DNA of 64,000 nt from Candidatus Cloacimonadales bacterium (lineage in GTDB: Bacteria; Cloacimonadota; Cloacimonadia; Cloacimonadales; DAONDQ01). Location: NCBI GenBank assembly GCA_963662275.1, contig OY759316.1, positions 2,208,001 to 2,272,000 of the forward strand, read 5' to 3'. The stretch's first letter is position 1, and the number at the start of each line of letters is the position of its first letter. The position numbers and the translations under genes are program-made. The notes under the pieces were generated by a model. It did not search any database, had not been told where the DNA came from, and saw only the letters and a program-made list of their open reading frames with translations. Below, piece after piece: positions 2,993 to 62,293 of the stretch.

Positions 2993-5104
2993 ATCGAGTA
3001 GGGTGATGCTGGATAATTAATCCCAGCATCATCCCTCTCACAGAACCGTGCGTACGGGTCTCGTACACGGCTCCTGATAATCTTTGTAATTACTCGCAGT
3101 AATTAAATAAAACACTTGTCTGAAGCGATGTCAGATCAAACAACTTCAGTCCTTCAAACCACTTGTTCGGCAAGGCAAAGTTTAGGTGGAAGCTCAGGGA
3201 GTTACGCCATCTGGTCATGGATAGTTTTGGACATTCTCCTTTGAAGCCTTATCTCCGTAATGCTTTATGGAACGCTTTCCAGCTTTTCCATTCACGCATC
3301 TTCTTCATCCGAAGCCTCCTTCGTATCCATTCCATCAGGCTCTCAAAGATGCTCTTACAGCTTGCAGCCCTGAAATAGTTACCCCATCCTCTTAGTATAG
3401 GATTCAGGTTTTCTATTATCATGGCTATGGGTATGCCACTGTTGCGGGGAGTAAGTTTTCGTATCTTATCCTTGAAGCGTTTCAAACGTTCCCTGTCGAT
3501 ACAGACACGCTTACCTTTGATGTTAAATCCAAGATAACTGACCCCGCTGCTGATACTGCTGATATGAGTCTTTTCCAGATTGACTTGCAGGCGAAGTTCT
3601 TCAAGTATCGCTGTCGCTATCTTTTGATATTGCTCTGCCTTTTTCCTGGTCGGAGCAAATATCAGGATGTCATCAGCATAACGTACTATCCTGATATTCC
3701 GCTGTTTCATCTTCTGGTCGAACTCATCCAGATAGATATTCATCAATAAGGGTGAGATTACTCCACCTTGCGGACTGCCTATCTCAGTAGCTTTGAAATC
3801 CCCATCGACCATTACTCCTGATTTGAGAAAACGGCTGATTAATCTCAGCAATGTACCATCACTGATTTTCCTGTTCAGACGGCTCAATATCCGTTCGTGG
3901 TCTAAGGTGTCAAAACATTTGGATAAGTCCATATCCACGGCATAACCCAAATTGTAAGCTGTAAGAAAACGCTGGGCTTTTGCTACGGCATGCTGGCAAG
4001 ACCGATGCGGTCTGTAACCATAACTGGACGGATGGAAGTCAGGCTCAAATATCGGTTGTATGATATTCAGGATTGCCTGCTGCACTACTCTGTCTCTTAC
4101 CGTTGGAATGCCAAGCGGTCTCATTTTGCCATTGGGTTTGGGTATCTCTACCCGCCTTACAGGTGATGGCTCGTAAGTACCTGCCATTAGTTCGTCGTGA
4201 AGTTGGTTGATGTTCACTGCCAGTTGTTCGTCAAAGTTTGCTATACTCTGCCCATCAATGCCTGATGCACCTTTATTTCGTTTTACCGAAGTGAAGGAAG
4301 CATACAGGTTGGGCAGGGAGTACACCTTGTCGATTAAGCTGTAGTATTTTCTCATGACATTTCCTGTCTCATTGTGATTCGTCTTGAGGTGTTCATCGAT
4401 GATGATTGTCTCTTCATCAGGTCGTCCTGCCTTCTTTAGCATATAGCAATATGGCAGAACTGCTAATTTTGTGCTTTGCCTGATTAATCAGTCTCGTGCG
4501 GTCGGGGTTGAAAGGAAGTTCGTCACCACTGTCAAACCGAGCCTCGAAGCATTTCAGCTCCTTCCTTCGTTTCTCACTTTTCATCGATTACTTTCCACAT
4601 TTCAAATCATGCCTTCGGATTATCTTCATCCCTTCGCATGAACTGCATCCTTTTGAGATACAGAACTCAGCATTACCGTGAATGCTGTCCCTTTTGTTTT
4701 ATCCTCCAGACTGTCACCAGCTTTCATAGGCAAAAGGTTAATCACTACTACGGAATCATCTGCCACCTGCTACCGCTTGGCTTCTCACTTGTCTTTCAAC
4801 TTGATCGAAGCTACTACCTTAAGTAGACAATAACAGGCTTCCCCAGTTAAGTTTTCCTGCCTGAATATGAAGCCATCTGTCATAATCTGTAGAGTTATCC
4901 AGCTTTCGGGCTTTCCCACTTTTAGAAAGGTTACCCACTCTACAAACCAACATCAGTTCACTTGCGCTGTGTTCCATATTCCCTCTGCGTCTTACTTCAG
5001 ACCCTGCCGTTGCCGGCAACGCCCTTGACCTCGAGTTGACTTCCCGCTGATTAGGTGTCAGGACTTCTTCCAGTCCATCGGCGCAGAAAACATTCTGGGC
5101 AAAC
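2993..5104 (-). mobile_element. Group II intron, class C (IIC)-like
   Basis: 5' GTTTGCCCAGAATG at 5104; DV GAGCCGTGTACGAGACCCGTACGCACGGTTC and DVI ending CCCTACTCGAT at 2993; RT ORF inside; inserted just downstream of a hairpin. Confidence 0.9.
3090..4355 (-). pseudogene. ltrA: Group II intron reverse transcriptase/maturase without En domain; in-frame TAA at 3249-3251
   Basis: RPLGIPTVRDRVVQ, PQGGVISPLL, RYADD, GWGNYF motifs; the frame continues 52 codons past the TAA (..RWRNS..ALPNKWFEGLKL..) to a TAA at 3090-3092. Confidence 0.85.
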
Positions 5105-6539: not shown

Positions 6540-7057
6540 ACACAGTTGAATGTGATGGTTTGAATTTCAACTTTCCCGATGCTATAGATGTCTTCAAGTT
6601 TGATGAAATGGATAAAACAAAACAAACCTTTCACTGTGGTTTCATGAAAGCTGTTGACATTGTAGCTGTTTTTAAAGACTATTCTGTTTTTATCGAACTT
6701 AAACAACATAAACAAGATTTGTATGATTTTTACAATACCTCAGATATAGCAGAAAGGACTACTCGATTCAATAAACTCCAAGACTTAAAAAGAGAATTGG
6801 TTTTAAAATACAGAGATTCTTTTCTATATCGTTATGCAGAAAAAGAAACCGATAAGCCAATCCATTACATCTGTCTTTTAACTCTCGACAACGCATTAAA
6901 TGGTCACATTGCCGGACTATTAAACAAAGAAATCCCAGTTGGTAAACCCAATCCAAGATGGAAGAAGGATATTGTAAAAAGTTGCAAGGTTCTTAATTTT
7001 AAAATGTGGAATAGAGCTTTCCCAAAATGGGTTGTTACAGGTATTGAGAACTCATAA
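6536..7057 (+). CDS. Putative PD-(D/E)xK nuclease, coupled to the ATPase
   Basis: ATGA overlap with the upstream gene; 'KAVDIVAV...VFIELK' motif. Confidence 0.6.
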   Translation: MNTVECDGLNFNFPDAIDVFKFDEMDKTKQTFHCGFMKAVDIVAVFKDYSVFIELKQHKQDLYDFYNTSDIAERTTRFNKLQDLKRELVLKYRDSFLYRYAEKETDKPIHYICLLTLDNALNGHIAGLLNKEIPVGKPNPRWKKDIVKSCKVLNFKMWNRAFPKWVVTGIENS

Positions 7058-7539
7058 TGGAAAACAAATTGGATGTGAAAGATTCGGAATCACATAGCCA
7101 GCAGCACGAAGCTTTGTGTAAAGCTGTAATCAGTCATTTCGTTCCAAAGTTTATGCCGGATGCGGTTTTGGTTTATTCCACTCTATCAATTGATTCTCCT
7201 GACCTCGATAAAGATCTTCAAACTAAGTTATGTATTCCAACTGATAATCCACAAGCATTACCTGATATTATTTTATATAAATCTGATTCCAACTGGTTAG
7301 TATTAATTGATTTAGTAACCGGACACAGAGTCATGGGCAATAATCGTTGTAAAGAATTGATAAGAATGTTCAAAGACTCTCCTATTGAACAGGTTTTCGT
7401 AAATGCATTTCATAATAAAAAGGAAATGACAGATTCTCAAACTGATATAGCATGGGGAACAAATGTCTGGTTTTCTGAAGAACCAGAGCATATGATACAT
7501 TTTGATGGGAATCACGTTGTGGAACCGTACAAGAAATGA
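7057..7539 (+). CDS. BsuBI/PstI-family restriction endonuclease C-terminal domain (stand-alone or truncated)
   Basis: 'HEALCKAVISHFVPKF', 'LPDIILY..NWLVLID', 'DIAWGTNVW..EEPEHMIHFDG' resemble the BsuBI/PstI C-terminus; no N-terminal domain or methylase nearby. Confidence 0.75.
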   Translation: MENKLDVKDSESHSQQHEALCKAVISHFVPKFMPDAVLVYSTLSIDSPDLDKDLQTKLCIPTDNPQALPDIILYKSDSNWLVLIDLVTGHRVMGNNRCKELIRMFKDSPIEQVFVNAFHNKKEMTDSQTDIAWGTNVWFSEEPEHMIHFDGNHVVEPYKK

Positions 7540-7831: not shown

Positions 7832-9793
7832 ATGAAATTAAAATCATTTCGAGTAACTGAATTCAAGTCTATTATCGATTCAAATGAAATACTAATCAAT
7901 GATATCGGATGTTTGGTCGGAAAAAATGAAGCTGGAAAGACTGCCTTATTACAAGCATTGTATAGGTTGAATCCGATTGATCAGGTCAATACGGACTTTA
8001 ATGTAACTAATGATTACCCTCGTGCAAATGTTTCTAACTATGAGATGGAAGTTTCAGAAGGTGAAAGATTTCCTTCTACAGTTATCAGTGCTGAGTTCAT
8101 TATCGAAGATTCTGACTTTATAGAAATGGGAATTGATCCAGCAATGCTTCCTGAAAAAAAAATAACTTTATTTAAAGGCTATGATAATATTGACTATTTT
8201 ACCTTATCCGTTTCACAAGATTTATATATAGAATGGCAATTTAGCAAGGTCAATTATTCTGAAGATGAACTAAATAAAGATCTAATTAAAACTATCATTA
8301 ATTGCAATACTATTAAGGATTTTGCTACAATAAACACCGAACCATTTAAAGGAGTGACGCAATGTGCGACTCTTGTAGAATTTATTACAAACATTCAAAA
8401 GCAACATCCTTCTCATGAAATTTATACAAAATATGTTGCACCGATAGTGCCTAAATTTCTATATTTTGATGAATTTTACCAAATGTCTGGAATGGTCAAT
8501 ATTCCGAAACTTAAATCAAGAGTTAGTAATAATCAAATCAAAGATAGTGATAAACCAATGTTAGGGTTAATAGAACTTGCTAGGTTGAGTCTTGATTCTT
8601 TTGATCAAATTAAAGAAACAAGGGAATTACTTAATAAGCTTGAAGGGGCATCAAATACCATTCAAAGATCTTTTATGAAATATTGGTCTCAAAGTAGCAA
8701 CATAAATCTGCAACTTGATTATCGTGAGGGTAAAACTCAAGATCAAGAAGAATTTCGATCAGGTGGCAATATTATAACTGCTATAAGAGACAATCTACAT
8801 CAAGTGACAACAATGATTGGAGAGAGATCGAGAGGTTTTATTTGGTTCTTTTCTTTTATCGCTTGGTTCTCACTTCAAAAATCAAAATATAAGAATAATA
8901 TAATTCTCCTATTAGATGAACCTGGTCTAACCTTACATGCCAAAGCACAATATGATCTTTTAAATTATATTGAAAAAGAATTAAGCCCTTACCACCAAGT
9001 AATTTATACTACACATTCCCCATTTATGATAGATATGAAACACATTGAGAGGATCAATATTGTTGAAGACAAGGGTCTTGATATTGATGAGATTATTGGA
9101 ACAAAGGTGACGCAGGACATTCTTGAAACGGGGAAAGATAGCTTGTTCCCTCTTCAAAGTGCATTGGGATATGAAATTACTCAATCTTTATTTATTGGTC
9201 CATATTGCTTGATTGTCGAAGAGCCTTCTGATTTACTATATTTAACTGCAATTTCTTCAATACTCGAGAAAAATGGAAGAGTATTTATAGATCCGCGATG
9301 GGTAATTACCCCAGTCGGTGGTATTGACAAAGTGCCTGCATTTATTTCATTATTTGGTTCTCAAAAAAATATGAAAATTGCCGTATTAATCGATTTTCAA
9401 TCAAAAGATAAGCAACTGATTGAAGGATTGTATAAAAAGAAACTGATTAAACAGACTAATGTGAAAACATTTTCTGATTATCTTAGTGGAAAAGATGCAG
9501 ATATTGAAGATATTTTTGATAATGAATTTTATATCAACTTAGTAAATTCAGAATACAAACAGGATTTGGCAAAACCGATAACAACAAAATTTCTTAATAC
9601 TAAAATTCCGCGTATCATTCTTCAACTGGAAGATTATTTTAAATCAAATCCACTGAAAAACAACATCACATATAATCACTACCGCCCTTCTAGGTATTTT
9701 AATGAAAACCTTGGTAAATTACAGGGAGCATTATCTGAGGAGAGTCTAAGTAGATTTGAATCAATTTTCAAAGATTTGAATACACTACTATAA
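7832..9793 (+). CDS. OLD-family-like ATP-dependent nuclease (ABC ATPase + TOPRIM)
   Basis: GKNEAGKT, RSRGFIWF, LLLDEPG, YTTHSPF, TOPRIM-like LIVEEPSD and DIED; GGAGG RBS. Confidence 0.8.
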   Translation: MKLKSFRVTEFKSIIDSNEILINDIGCLVGKNEAGKTALLQALYRLNPIDQVNTDFNVTNDYPRANVSNYEMEVSEGERFPSTVISAEFIIEDSDFIEMGIDPAMLPEKKITLFKGYDNIDYFTLSVSQDLYIEWQFSKVNYSEDELNKDLIKTIINCNTIKDFATINTEPFKGVTQCATLVEFITNIQKQHPSHEIYTKYVAPIVPKFLYFDEFYQMSGMVNIPKLKSRVSNNQIKDSDKPMLGLIELARLSLDSFDQIKETRELLNKLEGASNTIQRSFMKYWSQSSNINLQLDYREGKTQDQEEFRSGGNIITAIRDNLHQVTTMIGERSRGFIWFFSFIAWFSLQKSKYKNNIILLLDEPGLTLHAKAQYDLLNYIEKELSPYHQVIYTTHSPFMIDMKHIERINIVEDKGLDIDEIIGTKVTQDILETGKDSLFPLQSALGYEITQSLFIGPYCLIVEEPSDLLYLTAISSILEKNGRVFIDPRWVITPVGGIDKVPAFISLFGSQKNMKIAVLIDFQSKDKQLIEGLYKKKLIKQTNVKTFSDYLSGKDADIEDIFDNEFYINLVNSEYKQDLAKPITTKFLNTKIPRIILQLEDYFKSNPLKNNITYNHYRPSRYFNENLGKLQGALSEESLSRFESIFKDLNTLL

Positions 9794-9812
9794 AAAAAAT
9801 TAAGGGGATAGA

Positions 9813-10682
9813 ATGAAAAATACTGGGCGAGAATACGAAGAACTTACTGAAGAAATCTTTAAAAGTATTTTAGATATGAAAAACTATGTTACTTTACGTT
9901 TAGATAGGAATGTAAAAGTAAAAGGGAAATCAGGACAAAAACATGAAATCGACGTATATTGGGAATATCAATTAGGTCATGACCCCTCTCCGAAACTCAT
10001 CTTATTTCAATCAAAAGATTGGAAATCAAACGTCTCAAAAGGAGATGTTATGGCTTTTCATTGTGTTCTGCAAGATATTCCTGGTCAACCAAACGGAATT
10101 TATGTTACTAAGACTGGATATCAATCTGGAGCTATTGAATATGCTAAGTTTCACGGTAATCCACTATGGGAACTTAGACCTCCGACAAAAGAAGATTGGG
10201 AAAATCGTATTAAAGATATTCACTTTGAAATCCATTGTTCTACTCCAGATGTTAAATTGGAATTCAGTTTTGATAATGAATGGGCTAGGAATAAGTTCGA
10301 TGAGTTAGGCATTGAACCTGTTGAATTATCTATGGCGGGTATGAAACGCGACATTTACATTTTTGATAAACAATTTCAACAAACCAATGAAACTTTAGAT
10401 TCTATTGAAAATAAATATATTAAAATTTGTGAAGATTCTAAATCGGATCATATGGAAATAGAACATGATTTTGTTCCAGAATCATATATACGTACAAATA
10501 ATGATGCATTTCCATTTATGAAGATTAACGGAATAAAATTTGATATCAACATTCTGAAACATAATGAGACGATGATAATCAAAGGAGAAGACGTCGTCAA
10601 ATATAAATTATCTGAATGTTTTTCCGGTGCTCTATTTACAATTAATAAGGACAATCGATTAATTCCTCATTCAAATACCTGA
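9813..10682 (+). CDS. Mrr-like restriction endonuclease domain protein
   Basis: 'GREYEEL', 'GKSGQKHEIDVYW', 'FQSKDW', 'GIYVTKTGYQSGAIEYA'. Confidence 0.75.
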   Translation: MKNTGREYEELTEEIFKSILDMKNYVTLRLDRNVKVKGKSGQKHEIDVYWEYQLGHDPSPKLILFQSKDWKSNVSKGDVMAFHCVLQDIPGQPNGIYVTKTGYQSGAIEYAKFHGNPLWELRPPTKEDWENRIKDIHFEIHCSTPDVKLEFSFDNEWARNKFDELGIEPVELSMAGMKRDIYIFDKQFQQTNETLDSIENKYIKICEDSKSDHMEIEHDFVPESYIRTNNDAFPFMKINGIKFDINILKHNETMIIKGEDVVKYKLSECFSGALFTINKDNRLIPHSNT

Positions 10683-11878: not shown

Positions 11879-11948
11879 TTAAATATTGCTTTGCAAAATA
11901 TAAATATCTATTAATAATATTGCGTACAAATTTCAACAAGGAGTTTAC

Positions 11949-13499
11949 ATGATTTCATCACCAAGAGTTTTCGTTGGATCCTCTACAGATGCTGAAGAAG
12001 TCGATTTTCAGGTACGAGCTATTCTGGAAAAAATAGGTGCTACAGTTGTTGGTTGGAGAGATGTTTTCAAACCTGGTGATGTTACACTATTAGAATTACT
12101 GAAACTTGGTACATCTGTAGATGCAGCATTACTTATCGCTTCTCCAGATGATATGACTCAACGCCACGAAGATAAACACCTTTCCCCTAGAGATAATGTT
12201 TTACTTGAGTTAGGTATATTCCTTTCTTGTTTTGGCATGCATCGAACAGGAATACTTCATGTGAAAATTGGTGATAATATGGCTACGTTACCGACTGATC
12301 TAAAAGGAATTACTACAATTACATATGATACAAACAATCCAAATGAAAACACTAAGAAATTAGCTCAATGGATTGAATGTGTCAAAAAAGAACTCGATGC
12401 AGAATATCCTGGAATAAATATGGTTCTAAATAAAATTCAAAGTTATTTCAATTCCATACATCCAAGCTGGCTAAAACAAGTTGAACGTTATATTCTTCAT
12501 AAATTTGTCTTAGATTTAAAACTAGCTGCACATGGACATATTATCTTGTCACCTGGAAGATATTTTGAAGAGCTTTTTGACGAATTAGAAAATGTCTCAG
12601 CGGATTATGAAATTTCGGCAATTGCAACTTTATCCTCATCATTTTGGTCTCATGACCAAGAACAGCAATTATACGTAGATAAAAACATCGAAGCATCAAA
12701 AAAAGGGGTTTCTATTCGAAGAATGTTCATCATTCCTGATCAGAAATGGCGAGCATTCTTTCCTGTAATTCATAAGCAGATAGAAGCAGGAATAGAAATT
12801 CGAAGAGCTAAACCATCTATTTTATTAGAAAATCCTTCTTTAGAAGATATGGTGCTTTTTTTAAATAGGAAAACTAATGACTTAAGAGCTTATACTGCGG
12901 AACAAGTAATTGGAAACCCTAATATAATACGCCGTGGCAAAATAATATTAGATTCAGAAGAACGTTATGATTTACTAAGAGCGTTCGAACGTGCATGGTC
13001 TGTAGCATCTGTGATAACCGAAAAAGATATTAAAGTTTCACCATTTGTCGAAATCGCTTTTAGCAAACAAGTTCAAAATTTGAAAACTTATTACCTAAAT
13101 TCAAATGTGATTACCTGCATTGAGGCTGCAACTGCTAAGGGAATACCTCTAAAGAATGAGTTAAAATCTATTCTTTTATCTTCTTCAAAAGGTTATATTG
13201 TCGTTCATTTACCCGGAGATGCTGAAGTATCATTGCATAAAGTTAAAAAGGACTTAGATCTTCGAGAAGCAAGTTTAGCATCACTCAGTCAATTAAATAA
13301 AATAGGACTTAAGCCGGGTACAATTTGTGCTATTAAAGACCCTGTAAGGAGTTTTCAAAATCTTATCAGTAAAAGAGTTTTTGAATTAGATTACGTTTCG
13401 ACCAATAATGGAACCTTGCGTGGATATTATAATTTTCCGCCATCATTATTACTTGAAACCGAGAGTGTAAAAATGGGAGATTATGAAATCGATAGATAG
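11949..13499 (+). CDS. TIR (CAP12/PycTIR-type) + PLD-like/DUF6879-like + YbaK/tRNA-edit fusion protein
   Basis: 'RVFVGSS', 'SPDD', 'PRDNVLLELG', 'LPTDLKGIT' (TIR); 'KGVSIRRMFII' (PLD-like); 'ELKSILL..VVHLPGD..GLKPGTIC' (YbaK-like). Confidence 0.7.
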   Translation: MISSPRVFVGSSTDAEEVDFQVRAILEKIGATVVGWRDVFKPGDVTLLELLKLGTSVDAALLIASPDDMTQRHEDKHLSPRDNVLLELGIFLSCFGMHRTGILHVKIGDNMATLPTDLKGITTITYDTNNPNENTKKLAQWIECVKKELDAEYPGINMVLNKIQSYFNSIHPSWLKQVERYILHKFVLDLKLAAHGHIILSPGRYFEELFDELENVSADYEISAIATLSSSFWSHDQEQQLYVDKNIEASKKGVSIRRMFIIPDQKWRAFFPVIHKQIEAGIEIRRAKPSILLENPSLEDMVLFLNRKTNDLRAYTAEQVIGNPNIIRRGKIILDSEERYDLLRAFERAWSVASVITEKDIKVSPFVEIAFSKQVQNLKTYYLNSNVITCIEAATAKGIPLKNELKSILLSSSKGYIVVHLPGDAEVSLHKVKKDLDLREASLASLSQLNKIGLKPGTICAIKDPVRSFQNLISKRVFELDYVSTNNGTLRGYYNFPPSLLLETESVKMGDYEIDR

Positions 13500-13619
13500 C
13501 ACTTACTTTATTCGAGGTCGAGGTGACTTTCTCTCTAAACAGACGGGGTTACTGCCATGAACCCCAACATTGCACCACAGGTTACTGCGGACAGCTAACA
13601 GCGCAGAGCAGAACAAACT

Positions 13620-13646
13620 GTAACGCCTTATTCATAAGGTGTTACA
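13620..13646. repeat. REP-like palindrome GTAACGCCTTATTCATAAGGTGTTAC
   Basis: Near-perfect hairpin; further copies at ~17684-17708 and, inverted, at ~17761-17784. Confidence 0.8.
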
Positions 13647-13691
13647 AAATAGCAAGATCGGCGTCTTACTCTACAAGTAGAACAAATTATA

Positions 13692-13805: not shown

Positions 13806-14783
13806 ATGCAGAATCTGAATATTTTGGAAGACTATGTTTACGATATATTGGGAATAAAAGTAAGAGTGAATAAAGTCGATATCGCTAGCAGACTCCCTTT
13901 TTATCTTCAGAACAATTATCACTTTTATAGCATTCAAATCTATAATCATGATTACAATTTGATGTTAGCTAATGATGAGAATGAGATAACTCCTGCCCAG
14001 ATCAATAAGCATATTGGAGTTGTTAAGGAAAAAACAGGTCGGGAGACTATCTTTTGCTGTTCCAGGATAAGCTCATTCAATCGGAAGCGTCTGATAGAGT
14101 ATAAAATTCCATTTATTATCCCAGGTAATCAGATGTTCTTACCTGATATTGGTATTGATTTAAGAGAATATTACAAATATAGAAAACAGGCAACAGGAAA
14201 GCTAAGCCCTTCAACCCAGGTTATCGTATTAGATGCCTTGCTAAATCATGATTATACACCCAAAACGACATCACAACTCTCAAATAAACTGCCTTATACC
14301 AAAATGACCATAGGCAGGGCTTTTGATGAGTTGGAAGCAAATGAGATAGCCAAAATTGAGATGCTTGGGAAGGAACGTATTTTACATTTTAATCATACAG
14401 GCAAAGAGCTTTGGGATACAGTGTACAGCCTTTTACGTAATCCTATTGCAAAGAGGATTTACATAAATGAGCTTAATCCAAAAGAATCCATGCCTATTTC
14501 CGGTTTCACTGCGTTATCTCTGGAAACGATGATCAGTGAATCTCAATATCGAACTTATGCGATGAGCAGAGAAGAATATAAATTACTCCAGATAAGAAAT
14601 AACGTAGTTGAACTCGAATATCCTGCTCAGGATGCAATTGAAATTGAGATTTGGAGTTATTCTCCACGGTTGCTGTCACAAGGGGAACGTGTTGATAATC
14701 TCTCCCTGTATTTAAGTTTGAAAGATAATGAAGATGAAAGAGTTGAAATGGCTTTGGAATCACTTTTGGAGCAGATACTATAG
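13806..14783 (+). CDS. HTH-containing protein, probable antitoxin/regulator of an HTH + nucleotidyltransferase (type IV TA-like) pair
   Basis: 'RKRLIEYKIPFIIPGNQMFLPDIG', central wHTH 'TKMTIGRAFDEL', C-terminal 'VDNLSLYLSL..DERVE'. Confidence 0.6.
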   Translation: MQNLNILEDYVYDILGIKVRVNKVDIASRLPFYLQNNYHFYSIQIYNHDYNLMLANDENEITPAQINKHIGVVKEKTGRETIFCCSRISSFNRKRLIEYKIPFIIPGNQMFLPDIGIDLREYYKYRKQATGKLSPSTQVIVLDALLNHDYTPKTTSQLSNKLPYTKMTIGRAFDELEANEIAKIEMLGKERILHFNHTGKELWDTVYSLLRNPIAKRIYINELNPKESMPISGFTALSLETMISESQYRTYAMSREEYKLLQIRNNVVELEYPAQDAIEIEIWSYSPRLLSQGERVDNLSLYLSLKDNEDERVEMALESLLEQIL

Positions 14784-15079: not shown

Positions 15080-15826
15080 TTATTCTTTCTTAATGCCATT
15101 GCGTTCTCTCATTGACACTTTACCATCGATAAAAATAGGATAGGAATCGTGTATAATCCGGTCAAGGATGGCATCGGCAAGGGTTTCCTGACCAATCTTC
15201 TCATGCCATCCTCCGGTTCTGAACTGAGAACAGAAGATCGTTGATGAGTGCTGATGCCTCGCTTCGATAATCTCCAAAAGATCTCTTGCCTCTTGTTCTC
15301 TGAGTGGTGTCAGCAGCCATTCATCAAGTATCAGCAGTTTGATCTGCTTGTATTGTTTTATGACTTTCTTAAAAATACCTTCACCTCTGGCAACTGCCAG
15401 GTCATCCAGCAATTCGGGAAGTCGTATATATCTGACAGGATAATAGTTCCGGCAGGCTGCTATCCCGAAAGCACAACCCAGCCAGGATTTCCCGTTTCCT
15501 GATGCTCCCATAATGATTATATTCCGATTTTCGCTGATGTAACTGCAGGTTGATAAACGGATAATCTCAGATCGATCCAGCTTTCTGTCATCATGATATT
15601 CTACGTCTTCAATACTTGCCTGGCTGAACTTCAAGTTTGCCTTCTTAATTAGCCTCTGCAGTCTGTTATTTTTGCGTCTGGCCCATTCAGCATCTACGAG
15701 CAGACTGAAGCGTTCTTCGAAAAGCAAATCCTTAAATGCACCATCATGTAATTGCTGGCAGAAAGTATCAGCCATAGCACTCAAATGCATCTCGTGAAGC
15801 TTATTGACTGTTGATTGGCTGATCAT
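15080..15826 (-). CDS. istB: IS21 helper ATPase IstB
   Basis: GASGNGKS, LLILDEW, ADAILDRIIH, SMR. Confidence 0.95.
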   Translation of the reverse strand: MISQSTVNKLHEMHLSAMADTFCQQLHDGAFKDLLFEERFSLLVDAEWARRKNNRLQRLIKKANLKFSQASIEDVEYHDDRKLDRSEIIRLSTCSYISENRNIIIMGASGNGKSWLGCAFGIAACRNYYPVRYIRLPELLDDLAVARGEGIFKKVIKQYKQIKLLILDEWLLTPLREQEARDLLEIIEARHQHSSTIFCSQFRTGGWHEKIGQETLADAILDRIIHDSYPIFIDGKVSMRERNGIKKE

Positions 15827-17367
15827 TTATTTTTCCTCCCGTAGTAGTCTGCACCTCTGGTAATACCAAAATCAGAAGCAGGATCATTCTTTGCAGTCTC
15901 TGCCGCATTATTGATCTTATCAAAACCCGTCTTGAGTATGGTTTGGATATTTTTATAACCGGGATTGGGTGTATAAGATAATGCCCTTTGACATGCACTT
16001 TCGAGCCTCTGCACAGAATACCTGTCAGCTGATTTCAGAAGTGCCATACAGGAACGGTATCCCTGCTGTTCAACACGATAGGATGCCAGAATAGACTTAA
16101 TTACGATCATCGTATGTTCCCCTATTTCCTTTGCCCAGGAGATAAACCTCTCTGCATTCCATTCCTGATATTTCTGATGCTGTTCAGGCATATGTTCAGG
16201 GAGTGTCTGATACTGACCGGGATGACCAAATTTCCTGACATGGGAAGCGATTCTGTTGGAGTTATAGAAAACCTCGACAACTCTGCTTGTGATGCGTACA
16301 TCCACATAGTATTTTATGTATTCATAAGGAACCGAATAGTACATCTTATCCACGCTTATATGATAATTGAACTGTACTGTTGCCTTTGACCAGGCAGCAA
16401 GCTCATATGGCGACAATGACAATGGAATAAGCATGGGCTGTTCTTCTGCCTGAAAGACACTTTCTCTGCTTCCTTCTTTCTTTTGAAAGGGCTTGGTATT
16501 GAACTCTCCCAGTTTTTCCCTGATTGACATATTGAGTTCATGAAGCGAAAAGAATGTCTGGTTTCGCAAGGCAGCAATGATCCAGGTTGAGATGACTCCA
16601 ACTGTGCCTTCTGCACTGGGCTTATCCTTTGGTCTTCTAACTCTGGCAGGTATTACCGCAGTATCGTAATAAGCAGACATTTCTCCATAGGTTCTGTTGA
16701 TAACGGGAGTATACCACGACACATGGTCAACTCCCGTCTTAAGATTATCAGGAACAAGTATTTTAGTAACTCCATTAAAGTACTTGAAGCTATTTATATG
16801 AGCCTGAATCCAGCTTTCCATATTCATGGAAAGAAAGGCTTCCACATAGGAATAACCACTGTACGGGAGGGTTGCTACAAAAACATAGGCTTTGATCGGT
16901 TCACCGGTAATGTTGTTTTTGATGGCGGCAGTCTGTCCAGCCCAGTCCACTTCCAGCTTTTCTCCTGGTTTGTGTTTTATTCGCATGGTTGCTTTTGTCT
17001 TTTGTGAGTAATCATGGTAATGTTTGCAAAATTGCGTATACTTGTAGGGAATAGCCTGATTATTCCTGCATCCCTCAGAGTATTCATGCCAGAGTAGCGA
17101 CAGTGTTACACCACTCTTGGCAAGTTCCTTGTGTATGTGTTCATAATCAGGCATCTTCTGCGGGTTTGACGATAAGTAAGCCGGAAAGAGCTGCTCTTCG
17201 ATCATCTCATTTGTTAATGTATCAGGAAGCGGCCATTCAAGGCTCTGGTCTGTTGCCCTTTGAATGATCATCGACACGTTATTGCGGGAACAGGATAAAC
17301 TCGCCGCTATGCCTCGTCTGCTTATTCCCTGGCTGTGTAAGCGAAGGATCTCTCGGTAATTGGTCAT
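15823..17367 (-). CDS. istA: IS21 DDE transposase IstA
   Basis: EVDWAG, VPDNLKTGV, PKDKPSAE; GGAGG RBS before MTNYREIL. Confidence 0.95.
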   Translation of the reverse strand: MTNYREILRLHSQGISRRGIAASLSCSRNNVSMIIQRATDQSLEWPLPDTLTNEMIEEQLFPAYLSSNPQKMPDYEHIHKELAKSGVTLSLLWHEYSEGCRNNQAIPYKYTQFCKHYHDYSQKTKATMRIKHKPGEKLEVDWAGQTAAIKNNITGEPIKAYVFVATLPYSGYSYVEAFLSMNMESWIQAHINSFKYFNGVTKILVPDNLKTGVDHVSWYTPVINRTYGEMSAYYDTAVIPARVRRPKDKPSAEGTVGVISTWIIAALRNQTFFSLHELNMSIREKLGEFNTKPFQKKEGSRESVFQAEEQPMLIPLSLSPYELAAWSKATVQFNYHISVDKMYYSVPYEYIKYYVDVRITSRVVEVFYNSNRIASHVRKFGHPGQYQTLPEHMPEQHQKYQEWNAERFISWAKEIGEHTMIVIKSILASYRVEQQGYRSCMALLKSADRYSVQRLESACQRALSYTPNPGYKNIQTILKTGFDKINNAAETAKNDPASDFGITRGADYYGRKNK

Positions 17368-17780
17368 TGCATTGACCTCCATGAATTGATTTACACTGAT
17401 ACAGTGCATTAATTCATGTTGGTTTTTTCTTTCAAAATAGCAAGGTGGCTCTATTTTAGCGAAGACGTGGCTCTAAAACTCCGTACAAGTGGCTCTCATT
17501 TAGAATATTATTCAATCCAAAGATTGTTGGTGATTTACGAAATGAAGAGCATACTTTAGGATGCTTCTTCGTAGCGCTGACTTTAGGCGGTATCTATTTC
17601 TGTTTGGGAATTACCTCCTGAAGTAGGTGCTACATGCAGAAGGTTACAGCTAACAGCGGACAGGTAACAGCGCAGAGCAAACTGTAACGCCTTATTCATA
17701 AGGTGTTCCGCTGAATTTATTCAGTTTTTCTCCAGATCAGATACAATATAAATATTGTGGTACACCTTATGAATAAGGCG

Positions 17781-61176: not shown

Positions 61177-62293
61177 CCCCTGCATTCTGAAAATCAAGGG
61201 AAATCCTACACACACGAAAGCCTACATACGTATAGCTGCTCGTCGCATAAATGTAGCTCCGATCGGAAACGGTGCTATTGCTCGGACCACTGTTCCAGCT
61301 ACCACCGCGGTACACTCGGTAAGACCCACTGACTGCCCCATGCGGGTTATTTTGCGCTCCGCTCGGATATGTACCCGGAATGTCCCAGTTCCACTCCCAG
61401 ACGTTACCGGTCATATCAAACAGACCCAGTTCATTGGCTGTCTTGGTGCCTACAGTGTGTGTTGTACTGCTGGAGTTACCACTATACCAAGCCACCTCAA
61501 TAATGTCATTACTACCGCTATAGGTAAAACCATGTGTTGAGATACCACCACGTGCAGCAAACTCCCATTCAGCTTCTGTCGGAAGACGATAACCATTCGC
61601 TGTCCAGTTACATATAATATTAGTATGGTTATTATAATCGGAGTTCCAACTGGAAGGCCAGGAAGCTGGATTTGTGCCATATGTAAGATAACTGTAACAA
61701 GGGGTCTGACCTTCATTTATACTGCGTTTGTTACAATATTCAATGGCATTGAACCAGGATATATAGTATACCGGATAATTGCTGCCGACACCGTATCCCG
61801 ATGCTGGATTGTTTCCCATCACTGCCTGATACGCAGCTTGTGTCAGCTCGTACTTATCCAAATAGAAACTGCTCACGGTTACATCAGATACGCCATTATT
61901 GAATGTTCCACCTGCTATATAAATAAAGTTCTCGGGTATAGGTATGCTATCCCATGCCTGGACGATAAAGGCAAACTGGCTGCCATCAAAACTCTGCGTT
62001 TCATTGCCTGCCTGCCAGATGATGTGTTTTCCCGTACCTATATGGATTTTACCAGAAGCTCCGCTGAGATTGGCATTATTCGGAATTATAGTATAAGTAC
62101 TTCCACCGTCATTGGACAAATTCAGTGTGATATAGACGCTATCAGCGGTTGCGTATGAGACATCAAAGTAAATATCGACAATTTTTGAGCCATCGGTGCG
62201 CTGGGAGGCTGTGGCATTGGTTACCACCGGATCGGCGGCATATATTGCAACTGAAAGAATAAGTAAAAGCAATAAAAGTATTGTATTCTTCAT
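61172..62293 (-). CDS. Secreted FGE-sulfatase (CLec-fold) domain protein
   Basis: Signal peptide, YELTQ, YRLPTEAEWEFAARGG, GLFDMTGNVWEW, RVYRGGSW, GFRVCR. Confidence 0.9.
   Translation of the reverse strand: MKNTILLLLLLILSVAIYAADPVVTNATASQRTDGSKIVDIYFDVSYATADSVYITLNLSNDGGSTYTIIPNNANLSGASGKIHIGTGKHIIWQAGNETQSFDGSQFAFIVQAWDSIPIPENFIYIAGGTFNNGVSDVTVSSFYLDKYELTQAAYQAVMGNNPASGYGVGSNYPVYYISWFNAIEYCNKRSINEGQTPCYSYLTYGTNPASWPSSWNSDYNNHTNIICNWTANGYRLPTEAEWEFAARGGISTHGFTYSGSNDIIEVAWYSGNSSSTTHTVGTKTANELGLFDMTGNVWEWNWDIPGTYPSGAQNNPHGAVSGSYRVYRGGSWNSGPSNSTVSDRSYIYATSSYTYVGFRVCRISLDFQNAGA

Follow-up and report, generated by a model that had tools for sequence, protein, structure and literature searches.

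What might a protein do that joins a TIR domain to two folds known from nucleases and from transfer RNA (tRNA) proofreading? The question is raised by a single gene on the forward strand of a 64,000-nt stretch of the genome of a Candidatus Cloacimonadales bacterium (assembly GCA_963662275.1, contig OY759316.1, positions 2,208,001 to 2,272,000), which we call the window. A first-pass annotation, made from the letters of this stretch alone, had proposed a new single-gene anti-phage system here, and its interpretation now appears partly supported: the architecture, the conservation and the receptor-effector logic stand on the computational evidence set out below. The reading that we favor, at about even odds, is a single-protein abortive-infection NADase, with its phospholipase D (PLD)-like and YbaK-like domains serving together as the receptor.

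Gene and Domain Architecture

The gene is one open reading frame (ORF), as the first-pass annotation had stated; it is intact and starts with ATG, and the strand opposite it is closed by many stops. It is present as a single copy in a complete, single-contig genome of 4.38 Mb. Matches to Pfam and PADLOC models are confined to residues 4-153 and 386-463, and the ESM Atlas gave no usable match. An AlphaFold2 model of the whole protein reached a predicted local distance difference test score (pLDDT) of 83.2. The features of the gene are as follows.

11934..11939, + strand: ribosome-binding-site-like hexamer AAGGAG, 8 nt before the ATG, a consensus match
11949..13499, + strand: whole ORF, 516 aa plus stop, protein P0001
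11961..12338, + strand: TIR domain of the Cap12/PycTIR class, aa 5-130, from Pfam, PADLOC and alignment
12207-12209, + strand: predicted codon of the catalytic E87, from alignment with SfSTING
12339..12530, + strand: helical linker, aa 131-194, three long helices in the AlphaFold2 model
12531..13019, + strand: PLD-superfamily fold domain without the HKD motif, aa 195-357
13083..13487, + strand: YbaK/ProX-fold domain of a distinct subtype, aa 379-513
13164-13166, + strand: codon of K406, the conserved family Lys

The TIR Domain

Residues 6-127 match the Pfam family CAP12-PCTIR_TIR (PF10137) with an E-value of 2.8e-23 (82.6 bits, against a cut-off of 24.7). The best PADLOC models on this region are the "Effector TIR" (6.8e-30) of the cyclic oligonucleotide-based antiphage signaling system (CBASS) and PycTIR (3.3e-20), and no ThsB model is among the PADLOC matches of the protein. 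The NCBIfam Cap12 equivalogs stay below their cut-off, at 79 and 67.5 bits versus 450. The nearest solved chains are those of the Cap12 TIR-STING proteins 9lmq and 7un8 (E 8e-16 and 1.6e-13 for these two chains) and of PycTIR 8jsj (E 4.8e-10).

In SfSTING, the NADase pocket comprises F6, S10, W33, F37, L47, R78, N80, and the catalytic E84, and D110 acts in trans, being supplied by the neighboring TIR (Morehouse et al. 2022, PMC9402430). All nine residues named in that source are present in the focal protein as F8, S12, W36, F40, L50, R81, N83, E87, and D117, a mapping counted along the alignment, in which the chain numbering is offset by 8. E87, within the motif NVLLELG, aligns with E84, so that the first-pass assignment of a Cap12/PycTIR-type TIR with its catalytic Glu holds in both parts. 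W36, L50, R81, N83, and E87 are invariant across 23 aligned full-length members of the Cap12 type. We infer a predicted NAD+ (nicotinamide adenine dinucleotide) glycohydrolase of the NAD+-depleting effector class.

The PLD-Like Middle Domain

The linker that follows the TIR is poorly conserved except for W174. A separate model of residues 155-365, built from 70 sequences, reached a pLDDT of 96.5 and a predicted template modeling score (pTM) of 0.90; in it, the PLD-superfamily fold begins at about residue 195. When the middle domain was compared with 48,161 chains using VIA-align, the Z-scores were 14.7 for TrmBL2 (5bpd), 14.5 for Nuc (1bys), 14.4 for NucT (6ehi), and 14.3 for SauUSI (7clg), with 134-150 residues aligned at a root-mean-square deviation of 2.7-2.9; FAM83B (Z 13.5) and TrmB (Z 12.4) came after these, and the next unrelated folds scored at most 6. 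Foldseek also supports a PLD fold (E 2.7e-6).

No His or Lys is invariant or near-invariant at residues 195-357, whether in 23, 28, or 70 aligned sequences, and the HxK(x)4D (HKD) catalytic motif is thus missing. For this reason an active PLD nuclease or phospholipase was rejected. The residues that the family does hold invariant here are G196, Y205, W233, Q239, Y242, N246, R258, D300, and W350; W233, N246, and D300 are invariant in all 70 sequences, and in the closer set so are Y205, Q239, Y242, R258, and W350. The fold is shared with catalytic proteins (Nuc, NucT, Zucchini) and with noncatalytic ones (TrmB, TrmBL2, the DUF1669 domain of FAM83), on which the domain superposes with Z-scores of 12-15 over 130-150 residues. 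Like TrmB and FAM83, it lacks an invariant His/Lys pair; unlike all of these relatives, to which it is 6-15% identical, it has an extra pair of long N-terminal helices.

The middle domain had been described at first as "PLD-like/DUF6879-like." The PLD half of that label is well supported, but the DUF6879 half is so only weakly: the focal protein does not match the profile (PF21806, cut-off 23.9 bits) at E ≤ 1, and among 70 relatives five match at E ≤ 0.01, with P0124 alone (28.6 bits) exceeding the Pfam cut-off. A distant relationship to DUF6879 is likely.

The YbaK-Like Domain

Residues 386-463 match Pfam tRNA_edit (PF04073) at E 7.3e-12 (45.9 bits, cut-off 25.5). In Foldseek comparisons the AlphaFold2 model finds ProX of T. 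thermophilus (2cx5_A, E 4.9e-10, TMt 0.79) and YbaK of H. influenzae (1dbu, E 3.7e-8), and it superposes on ProX, YbaK, and APE2540 at a TM of about 0.8 (TMt 0.77-0.80). By profile alignment, K406, in the motif ELKS, aligns with the conserved Lys of IVKTL or IVKSL in 1wdv and 2cx5, which we take to be the catalytic Lys of the YbaK/ProX family; it is invariant in sets of 28, 29, and 11 aligned sequences. A C-terminal YbaK/ProX-like domain with a conserved Lys, as first proposed, is therefore confirmed.

The domain nevertheless differs from the trans-editing deacylases of the YbaK, ProX, and ProXp type (1dbu, 2cx5, 1wdv, 2dxa), with which it shares its fold, its tRNA_edit match and the Lys of the "KTL" strand, and from which it is set apart by its fusion to effectors and by a signature of its own. 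This signature (C390, A393, E404-L405-K406, G457, T485-N486) is invariant in the focal family and in three further kinds of protein: free-standing YbaK-like proteins of 140-190 aa (28 aligned, 33-47% identical to the focal family), fusions to a hairpin of two hydrophobic helices (2TM), and racemase fusions. Solved YbaK/ProX proteins show Gly-rich loops at the position of the "TN," and the substrate-loop Pro of GGVPP in 1wdv and 2cx5 is Ala in the focal PGTICAI; the stand-alone relatives keep PGTVCPF.

The YbaK fold also occurs in SadB of Pseudomonas (9qzk) and in Maqu_0641 (3mem), which combine a YbaK-like with an HDOD domain, are among the Foldseek matches and place the fold in a nonediting, regulatory multidomain protein. 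According to its description (PMC12075610), SadB works as an adaptor in proteolysis and ligand binding by it is unlikely, which indicates that a YbaK fold can serve as a protein adaptor. It differs from the focal protein in having neither a TIR nor a PLD-like domain.

Conservation, Distribution, and Modularity

All counts of family loci given here are lower bounds, and the scans of DNA were limited by the patterns used. A word-index search returned 33 matches besides the query, of which 23 carry PF10137 with PF04073 and two carry PF13676 with PF04073; these matches, at 35-52% identity, include metagenome-assembled genomes (MAGs) labeled Polyangiaceae and Thermoanaerobaculia. An exhaustive search of 1.84 billion representatives gave 57 matches below 1e-30, and at least 19 clusters (at 50% identity) among the matches listed align over nearly the whole length. 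At least eight full-length loci were found among 185,579 species genomes, spread over several phyla (Holophagales, Polyangiaceae, Thermoanaerobaculia, an unclassified bacterium, Vulcanimicrobiota, Ca. Angelobacter, Actinomycetota, and Hyalangium versicolor), and at least 15 more in metagenomes, for at least 23 loci overall (Acidobacteriota, Myxococcota, Actinomycetota, and others). One early concern was that the fusion might be a one-off or an assembly chimera; because the architecture is conserved across phyla, with TIR and tRNA_edit together in 25 of the 33 word-index matches, both possibilities were rejected. A phage-borne family was rejected as well, since viral contigs yielded no full-length member: with one family alignment there were eight TIR-only matches and with another none. 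The Holophagales copy (L001:8001-9587) has an in-frame TGA within the TIR, at a codon aligned with the focal Arg99, and an otherwise intact frame.

Could the protein belong to translation rather than immunity? On this explanation the YbaK-like domain would deacylate mischarged tRNA as a trans-editing or regulatory factor, with the TIR-like domain as a nucleotide-binding or regulatory appendage. The deacylase Lys and the fold are retained, and no part of the protein is better conserved than the YbaK-like domain; mean pairwise identity among 23 full-length members is 60.5% there, as against 53.8% in the TIR, 47.3% in the PLD-like domain, and 32.6% in the linker. The focal gene is also the only Pfam tRNA_edit match in its genome, this search finding no other YbaK, ProX, or ProRS-INS domain, and the 2TM variant at L183 adjoins a gene for arginyl-tRNA synthetase. 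The clade can do without the gene, however: a search of 40 genomes from the same genus or order did not find it, and the distribution described above is patchy. Conservation extends to the full NADase active site, mobile elements bound the low-GC island in which the gene lies, and the match to the Cys-tRNA(Pro) deacylase equivalog (TIGR00011) is 18.7 bits against a cut-off of 153.25. We judge this explanation highly improbable, more so than any of the others considered here. Absence from the 40 relatives, the low-GC island with its intron and IS21 boundaries, and the defense neighbors point instead to an accessory, island-borne gene.

The PLD-like/YbaK-like module is the constant part of the family, and the N-terminus varies around it. 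Most members carry a Cap12-type TIR. A TIR_2 domain takes its place in P0027, P0028, P0059, P0061, P0064, P0065, and P0067, a DUF4062 domain in P0051, and a 2TM hairpin in a subfamily of 450-472 aa (P0069, P0072, P0073, P0074, P0077, P0078, and P0086). TIR and PLD-like domains without YbaK occur in P0057, P0062, P0070, P0080, P0083, P0109, and P0124. In CBASS and in the pyrimidine cyclase system for antiphage resistance (Pycsar), Cap12-type TIR and 2TM effectors are attached to SAVED, STING, or cyclic nucleotide monophosphate (cNMP) receptors, and fusions of receptor and effector typically keep one C-terminal module while the killing domains are exchanged. The earlier suggestion that the PLD-like and YbaK-like domains are the sensing side and the TIR the effector is borne out to this extent.

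A related arrangement was seen on one metagenome contig (L099:852-4375), where three Cap12-type TIR genes stand in tandem: TIR with a PLD-like domain and no YbaK, TIR alone, and TIR fused to an FGE-sulfatase domain.

Proposed Mechanism

The reading of the protein as receptor and effector in one chain follows from the full NADase pocket together with the constant C-terminal module and its swapped effectors. The reading as a single-protein system follows from the lack of a universal neighbor and from the failure to find the cassette genes described below in the window's genome and in five other host genomes. NADase activity, assembly-driven activation, the choice of trigger-binding domain, the identity of the trigger, and phage defense are each inferred from these comparisons.

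In the mechanism that we propose, the TIR would act as an NAD+ glycohydrolase but stay inactive as long as the protein is dispersed, and the C-terminal receptor would consist of a catalytically dead PLD fold and a special YbaK-like domain. Binding of a trigger would lead to self-association through the helical linker and the PLD-like domain. The TIRs would then pack together, with Asp117 of one completing the active site around Glu87 of its neighbor, and NAD+ would be destroyed, so that the infected cell would stop growing (abortive infection). Nuc dimerizes and the TrmB domain binds a ligand; the dead PLD fold may, by analogy, do either.

The trigger would most likely be bound in the YbaK-like pocket, which is the obvious candidate because its relatives hold the aminoacylated 3'-adenosine of tRNA. 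Within this proposal, we consider a small molecule of the nucleotide or aminoacyl-ribose type the best single candidate, at a little under even chances; the 3' end of a tRNA or aminoacyl-tRNA, or a tRNA fragment, comes next as a reasonable possibility, and a phage protein appears unlikely. That the YbaK-like domain is the best conserved suggests that its ligand is conserved too and is not a phage protein, which would evolve fast.

TIR NADases are a central effector in bacterial, plant, and animal immunity, and the systems differ in how they are switched on. Here the switch would combine a dead PLD nuclease fold with a tRNA-proofreading (YbaK) fold, neither of which is known to act as an immune receptor. 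If the pocket reads the 3' end of tRNA, whether aminoacylated or free, there would be a direct link from the state of translation to abortive infection. If it reads a small molecule, the domain would be a new receptor class beside SAVED, STING, CARF, SLOG, and Macro, and the cassette discussed below would be a candidate source of a new signal.

Neighborhoods of Other Family Members

We compared 14 independent contexts, including the window, after merging L004 with L088, L082 with L083 and L084, L085 with L086, and L094 with L095, and excluding contigs that were too short. No neighboring gene is common to all 14. Four contexts have strong matches to known or candidate defense models: the window; L002, with Shedu SduA directly upstream and also a PRTase-NACHT protein, a reverse transcriptase, and a TIR-kinase; L003, with PD-Lambda-5 A and B directly downstream and also a patatin; and L006, with a PycTM-like 2TM gene directly upstream (80 nt) and PDC-S01 downstream. 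Conflict-type domains occur in five further contexts, namely SIR2-STAND in L082, CHAT with an integrase in L087, Ppx/GppA-TIR_2 in L089, caspase with a transposase in L095, and, in L008 (L008:6112-7944, Hyalangium versicolor), a SLOG(LSDAT_prok)-DUF4231-SLATT_1 gene directly upstream that overlaps the focal homologue by 4 bp.

The last of these arrangements raises the question of whether the TIR might act as in Thoeris, making an ADP-ribose-derived signal after infection is sensed and leaving execution to a neighboring membrane protein or other effector. The overlapping gene in L008 and the PycTM-like gene in L006 would suit such a division of labor, as would the DUF6236 gene, which ends 70 nt before the focal gene and shares its strand, and TIR genes paired with SLATT-domain genes have been put forward as putative Thoeris types (Yirmiya et al. 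2025, bioRxiv 10.64898/2025.12.03.692087). In the comparison with Thoeris ThsB and its SLATT or SLOG effectors, a SLOG-SLATT neighbor occurs only in L008 and a PycTM-like neighbor only in L006. Against such a role, the TIR fits the CBASS and Pycsar effector models and no ThsB model. The upstream gene differs in every context, and a 2TM hairpin that replaces the TIR suits an effector position, not a signal synthase. The DUF6236 protein has no transmembrane segment by a simple hydropathy scan and no PADLOC match, and its family is found at no other locus. A Thoeris-like role seems to us very unlikely.

Two further neighborhoods may be recorded. At the only locus found for the 2TM variant (L183), the genes on either side encode arginyl-tRNA synthetase and a TPR protein, both named from PDB sequence matches only. 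In an Actinomycetota MAG (L007:7098-7868), a NUDIX-NrtR winged-helix protein is encoded directly upstream of the family member; NrtR is an ADP-ribose-responsive regulator.

The Asparaginase and Cyclase-FGE Cassette

Five of the 14 contexts (L003, L004, L006, L082, and L090) encode a 370-aa asparaginase at a distance of zero to three genes from the family member, and it is 66-79% identical between hosts of different phyla whose DNA has 38-62% GC. It accompanies 7 of 23 full-length loci, versus none of 137 control loci with other Cap12-type TIR proteins. Searching with the asparaginase revealed three more loci (L166-L168) with a co-oriented cassette and no focal gene. The order, co-oriented in L166, L167, and L006, is a pyridoxal-phosphate (PLP) decarboxylase, a cyclase-FGE protein, the asparaginase, and a fusion of a YbaK-like domain to an Asp/Glu racemase. 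In L168 a flavin adenine dinucleotide (FAD) oxidoreductase replaces the decarboxylase. In L090 a Cap12-TIR-FGE protein replaces the cyclase-FGE, and the row reads Cap12-TIR-FGE, asparaginase, a 274-aa protein, YbaK-like-racemase, and focal gene. In L006 the whole cassette stands beside the PycTM-like gene and the focal gene. The cassettes lie at these positions.

L166:3993-10626
L167:3862-9592
L168:4016-9699
L006:1376-7063
L090:1131-5816

The cyclase-FGE proteins, 500-520 aa long, begin with a class III nucleotide cyclase domain and end with an FGE-sulfatase domain. Their cyclase scores are barely above the Pfam cut-off of 21.9 bits (25.6, 23.8, and 22.1), with L006 below it at 17.9; by profile, the domain matches the trypanosome adenylate cyclase 1fx4 at E 3.3e-6. 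The signature of the focal protein (C, A, ELK, G, TN) recurs in the YbaK-like part of the racemase fusion, so two proteins of one operon share the putative receptor domain.

These findings bear on a second way of reading the family, in which the protein is the signal-dependent NADase effector of a Pycsar-like multigene system. Here the YbaK-like domain would read a molecule made by the operon, with the cyclase-FGE and possibly the asparaginase, the decarboxylase, and the YbaK-like-racemase as partners, and the window copy would be an orphan whose signal is made elsewhere or by the phage. The enrichment of the asparaginase over the control loci, the co-oriented cassette and its variants, the cyclase matches, and the shared signature all speak for it. 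Nine of the 14 contexts, however, have no cassette within the available flanking DNA. A search of the window's genome for the cassette-type asparaginase gave only a distant locus with 33% identity as its best match, and the host genomes of L001, L002, L005, L007, and L008 likewise lacked it, with best matches of 28-35% identity or none; the YbaK-like-racemase was not found in the window's genome either. L166-L168 carry the cassette but no focal gene, no PADLOC model, PycC included, matched its proteins, the L006 cyclase falls under the cut-off, and the whole could be ordinary amino-acid metabolism under cyclic AMP (cAMP) control. We think this reading unlikely, though less so than the other alternatives. 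Some family members may work with partners, and the window's genome holds none of these.

A bolder version would make the C...ELK...G...TN subtype a new receptor for an amino-acid-linked or ribose-ester nucleotide signal, made by the cyclase-FGE on sensing infection, perhaps with the asparaginase, racemase, and decarboxylase, and read by the TIR, 2TM, and racemase fusions alike. It is decidedly unlikely in our estimate. Were it true, it would amount to a new branch of nucleotide-based immune signaling with a receptor borrowed from tRNA proofreading, in which the target of some effectors might be the amino-acid pool and not NAD+.

Returning to the proposal of a single-protein NADase with a built-in receptor, several observations weigh against it. 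The YbaK-like domain keeps its Lys and might work as an enzyme instead of a receptor, and it is the sole tRNA_edit domain detected in the genome. The asparaginase beside the gene in 5 of 14 contexts and the cassettes of L006 and L090 favor an operon-made signal over direct sensing, and a TIR that produces a signal would be equally compatible with the neighbors in L008 and L006. No defense-type neighbor is seen in L001, L004, L007, L086, and L090 (five of the 14 contexts), the neighbors in L090 being the asparaginase-type cassette only. With a pTM of 0.45, the full-length model does not predict how the domains are arranged, and forms with PLD-like and YbaK-like domains only are often on contigs barely longer than the gene and may be truncated calls. 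Of the single-gene idea first put forward, the lack of a universal neighbor and of partners in the window's genome stands; its extension to the whole family is called into question by the asparaginase, the cassettes of L006 and L090, and the overlap in L008.

Comparison with Known Systems and the Literature

The closest known designs are Cap12 TIR-STING (SfSTING 7un8, 9lmq) and TIR-SAVED, which share with the focal protein the TIR class PF10137, the nine active-site residues, and an N-terminal TIR followed by a C-terminal receptor-like module. The receptor itself differs, being a PLD fold with a YbaK-like domain and not STING or SAVED. Membership in CBASS or Pycsar was not supported: the operon has no CD-NTase or Pyc cyclase, and the protein has no SAVED, STING, or cNMP-binding domain. 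As the first-pass annotation had noted, the window holds neither a cyclase nor ThsA; class III cyclase (PF00211) has no match there and 11 elsewhere in the genome, SMODS has none in the genome, and the genome's one SIR2_2 match lies outside the window.

PycTIR and PycTM form a parallel pair of TIR and transmembrane (TM) effectors, and the focal family resembles Pycsar (8jsj) both in its TIR class and in having relatives with a 2TM hairpin in place of the TIR. It differs from Pycsar in that the focal protein lacks a cNMP-binding domain, the window lacks a class III cyclase, and a cyclase-FGE is nearby only in L006.

The literature search found no description of a TIR + PLD-like + YbaK-like design, in agreement with the earlier impression that the architecture was not among described systems; subscription journals were thinly covered, and an earlier description is possible. 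YbaK was not paired in the search with a TIR domain, TIR defense, or biological conflict, DUF6879 was not mentioned, and YbaK appeared with anti-phage only in work on CRISPR arrays, judged by title and abstract. No listed paper named both PF04073 and PF10137, and none linked an asparaginase to a TIR domain in a defense island. The screen of TIR clusters by Yirmiya et al. (2025) included PF10137 and removed TIRs in stand-alone proteins by design; its main text does not mention YbaK, tRNA, or DUF6879, and its supplementary tables could list such clusters. The family is small, and most of its members come from soil and sediment lineages that are uncultured; this may explain why it was missed in systematic screens. 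Within the literature searched, the effector would thus be of a known kind, a TIR NADase, and the receptor module would be one not described before.

Genomic Context in the Window

The focal gene closes a same-strand run of HEC-02A, HEC-02B, a BsuBI/PstI-type fragment, an ATPase, an Mrr nuclease, and DUF6236. The PADLOC scan covered ORFs between 3.2 and 19.1 kb of the window and identified HEC-02A (E 5.6e-123) and HEC-02B (E 4.2e-53). The gene run has 31-35% GC, versus 37-44% in the flanks, and is bounded by a group II intron and an IS21 element. The first-pass description of a defense island is accordingly upheld for the upstream side, with HEC-02A/B, the OLD-like ATPase, and Mrr. The main features around the gene are listed below.

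3249-4442: reverse transcriptase of the group II intron, with Rfam RF02001 at 4852-5019; bounds the low-GC run
7057-7539, + strand: BsuBI/PstI-type ORF, 160 aa, matching positions 172-316 of a 317-position model
7832-10682, + strand: AAA_15/OLD-like ATPase, 653 aa, then after 20 nt an Mrr_cat nuclease, 289 aa
10754-11878, + strand: DUF6236 protein, 374 aa, ending 70 nt upstream of the focal gene
11890-11918: weak promoter-like site in the 70-nt gap behind the upstream gene, a consensus match
13806-14783, + strand: ORF of unassigned family, 325 aa, after a 306-nt gap, between the focal gene and IS21
15080-17409: IS21 element; bounds the low-GC run

Promoter-like sites are not above what shuffled sequence leads one to expect (30 found versus 23.6 ± 3.8). 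DUF6236 occurs in one of 232 genomes of the phylum, the window's own. The 325-aa ORF has no Pfam family and a weak PADLOC CARF3 match (E 2.9e-4, residues 136-200). Both the DUF6236 gene and this ORF were rejected as partners, as neither was found beside any other family member.

Several minor observations complete the picture of the island. At the gathering threshold, Rfam gave nothing over 1-20 kb besides the group II intron; within the 306-nt gap, 13500-13650 is a G+C-rich stretch amid AT-rich surroundings with no Rfam family at that score. The BsuBI/PstI-type ORF matches only the C-terminal catalytic domain, resembles a fragment or a minimal nuclease, and has a one-base overlap with the end of the HEC-02B gene. 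The 653-aa ATPase matches the AriA, Old, and GajA models, and with the Mrr nuclease it makes a candidate two-gene defense pair, a system that PADLOC does not name. Finally, the host genome has 66 FGE-sulfatase domain matches, one of them in the window (61199-61909, − strand) and several within one repeat-rich open frame of 3333 aa (G000:C1:2908047-2917556).

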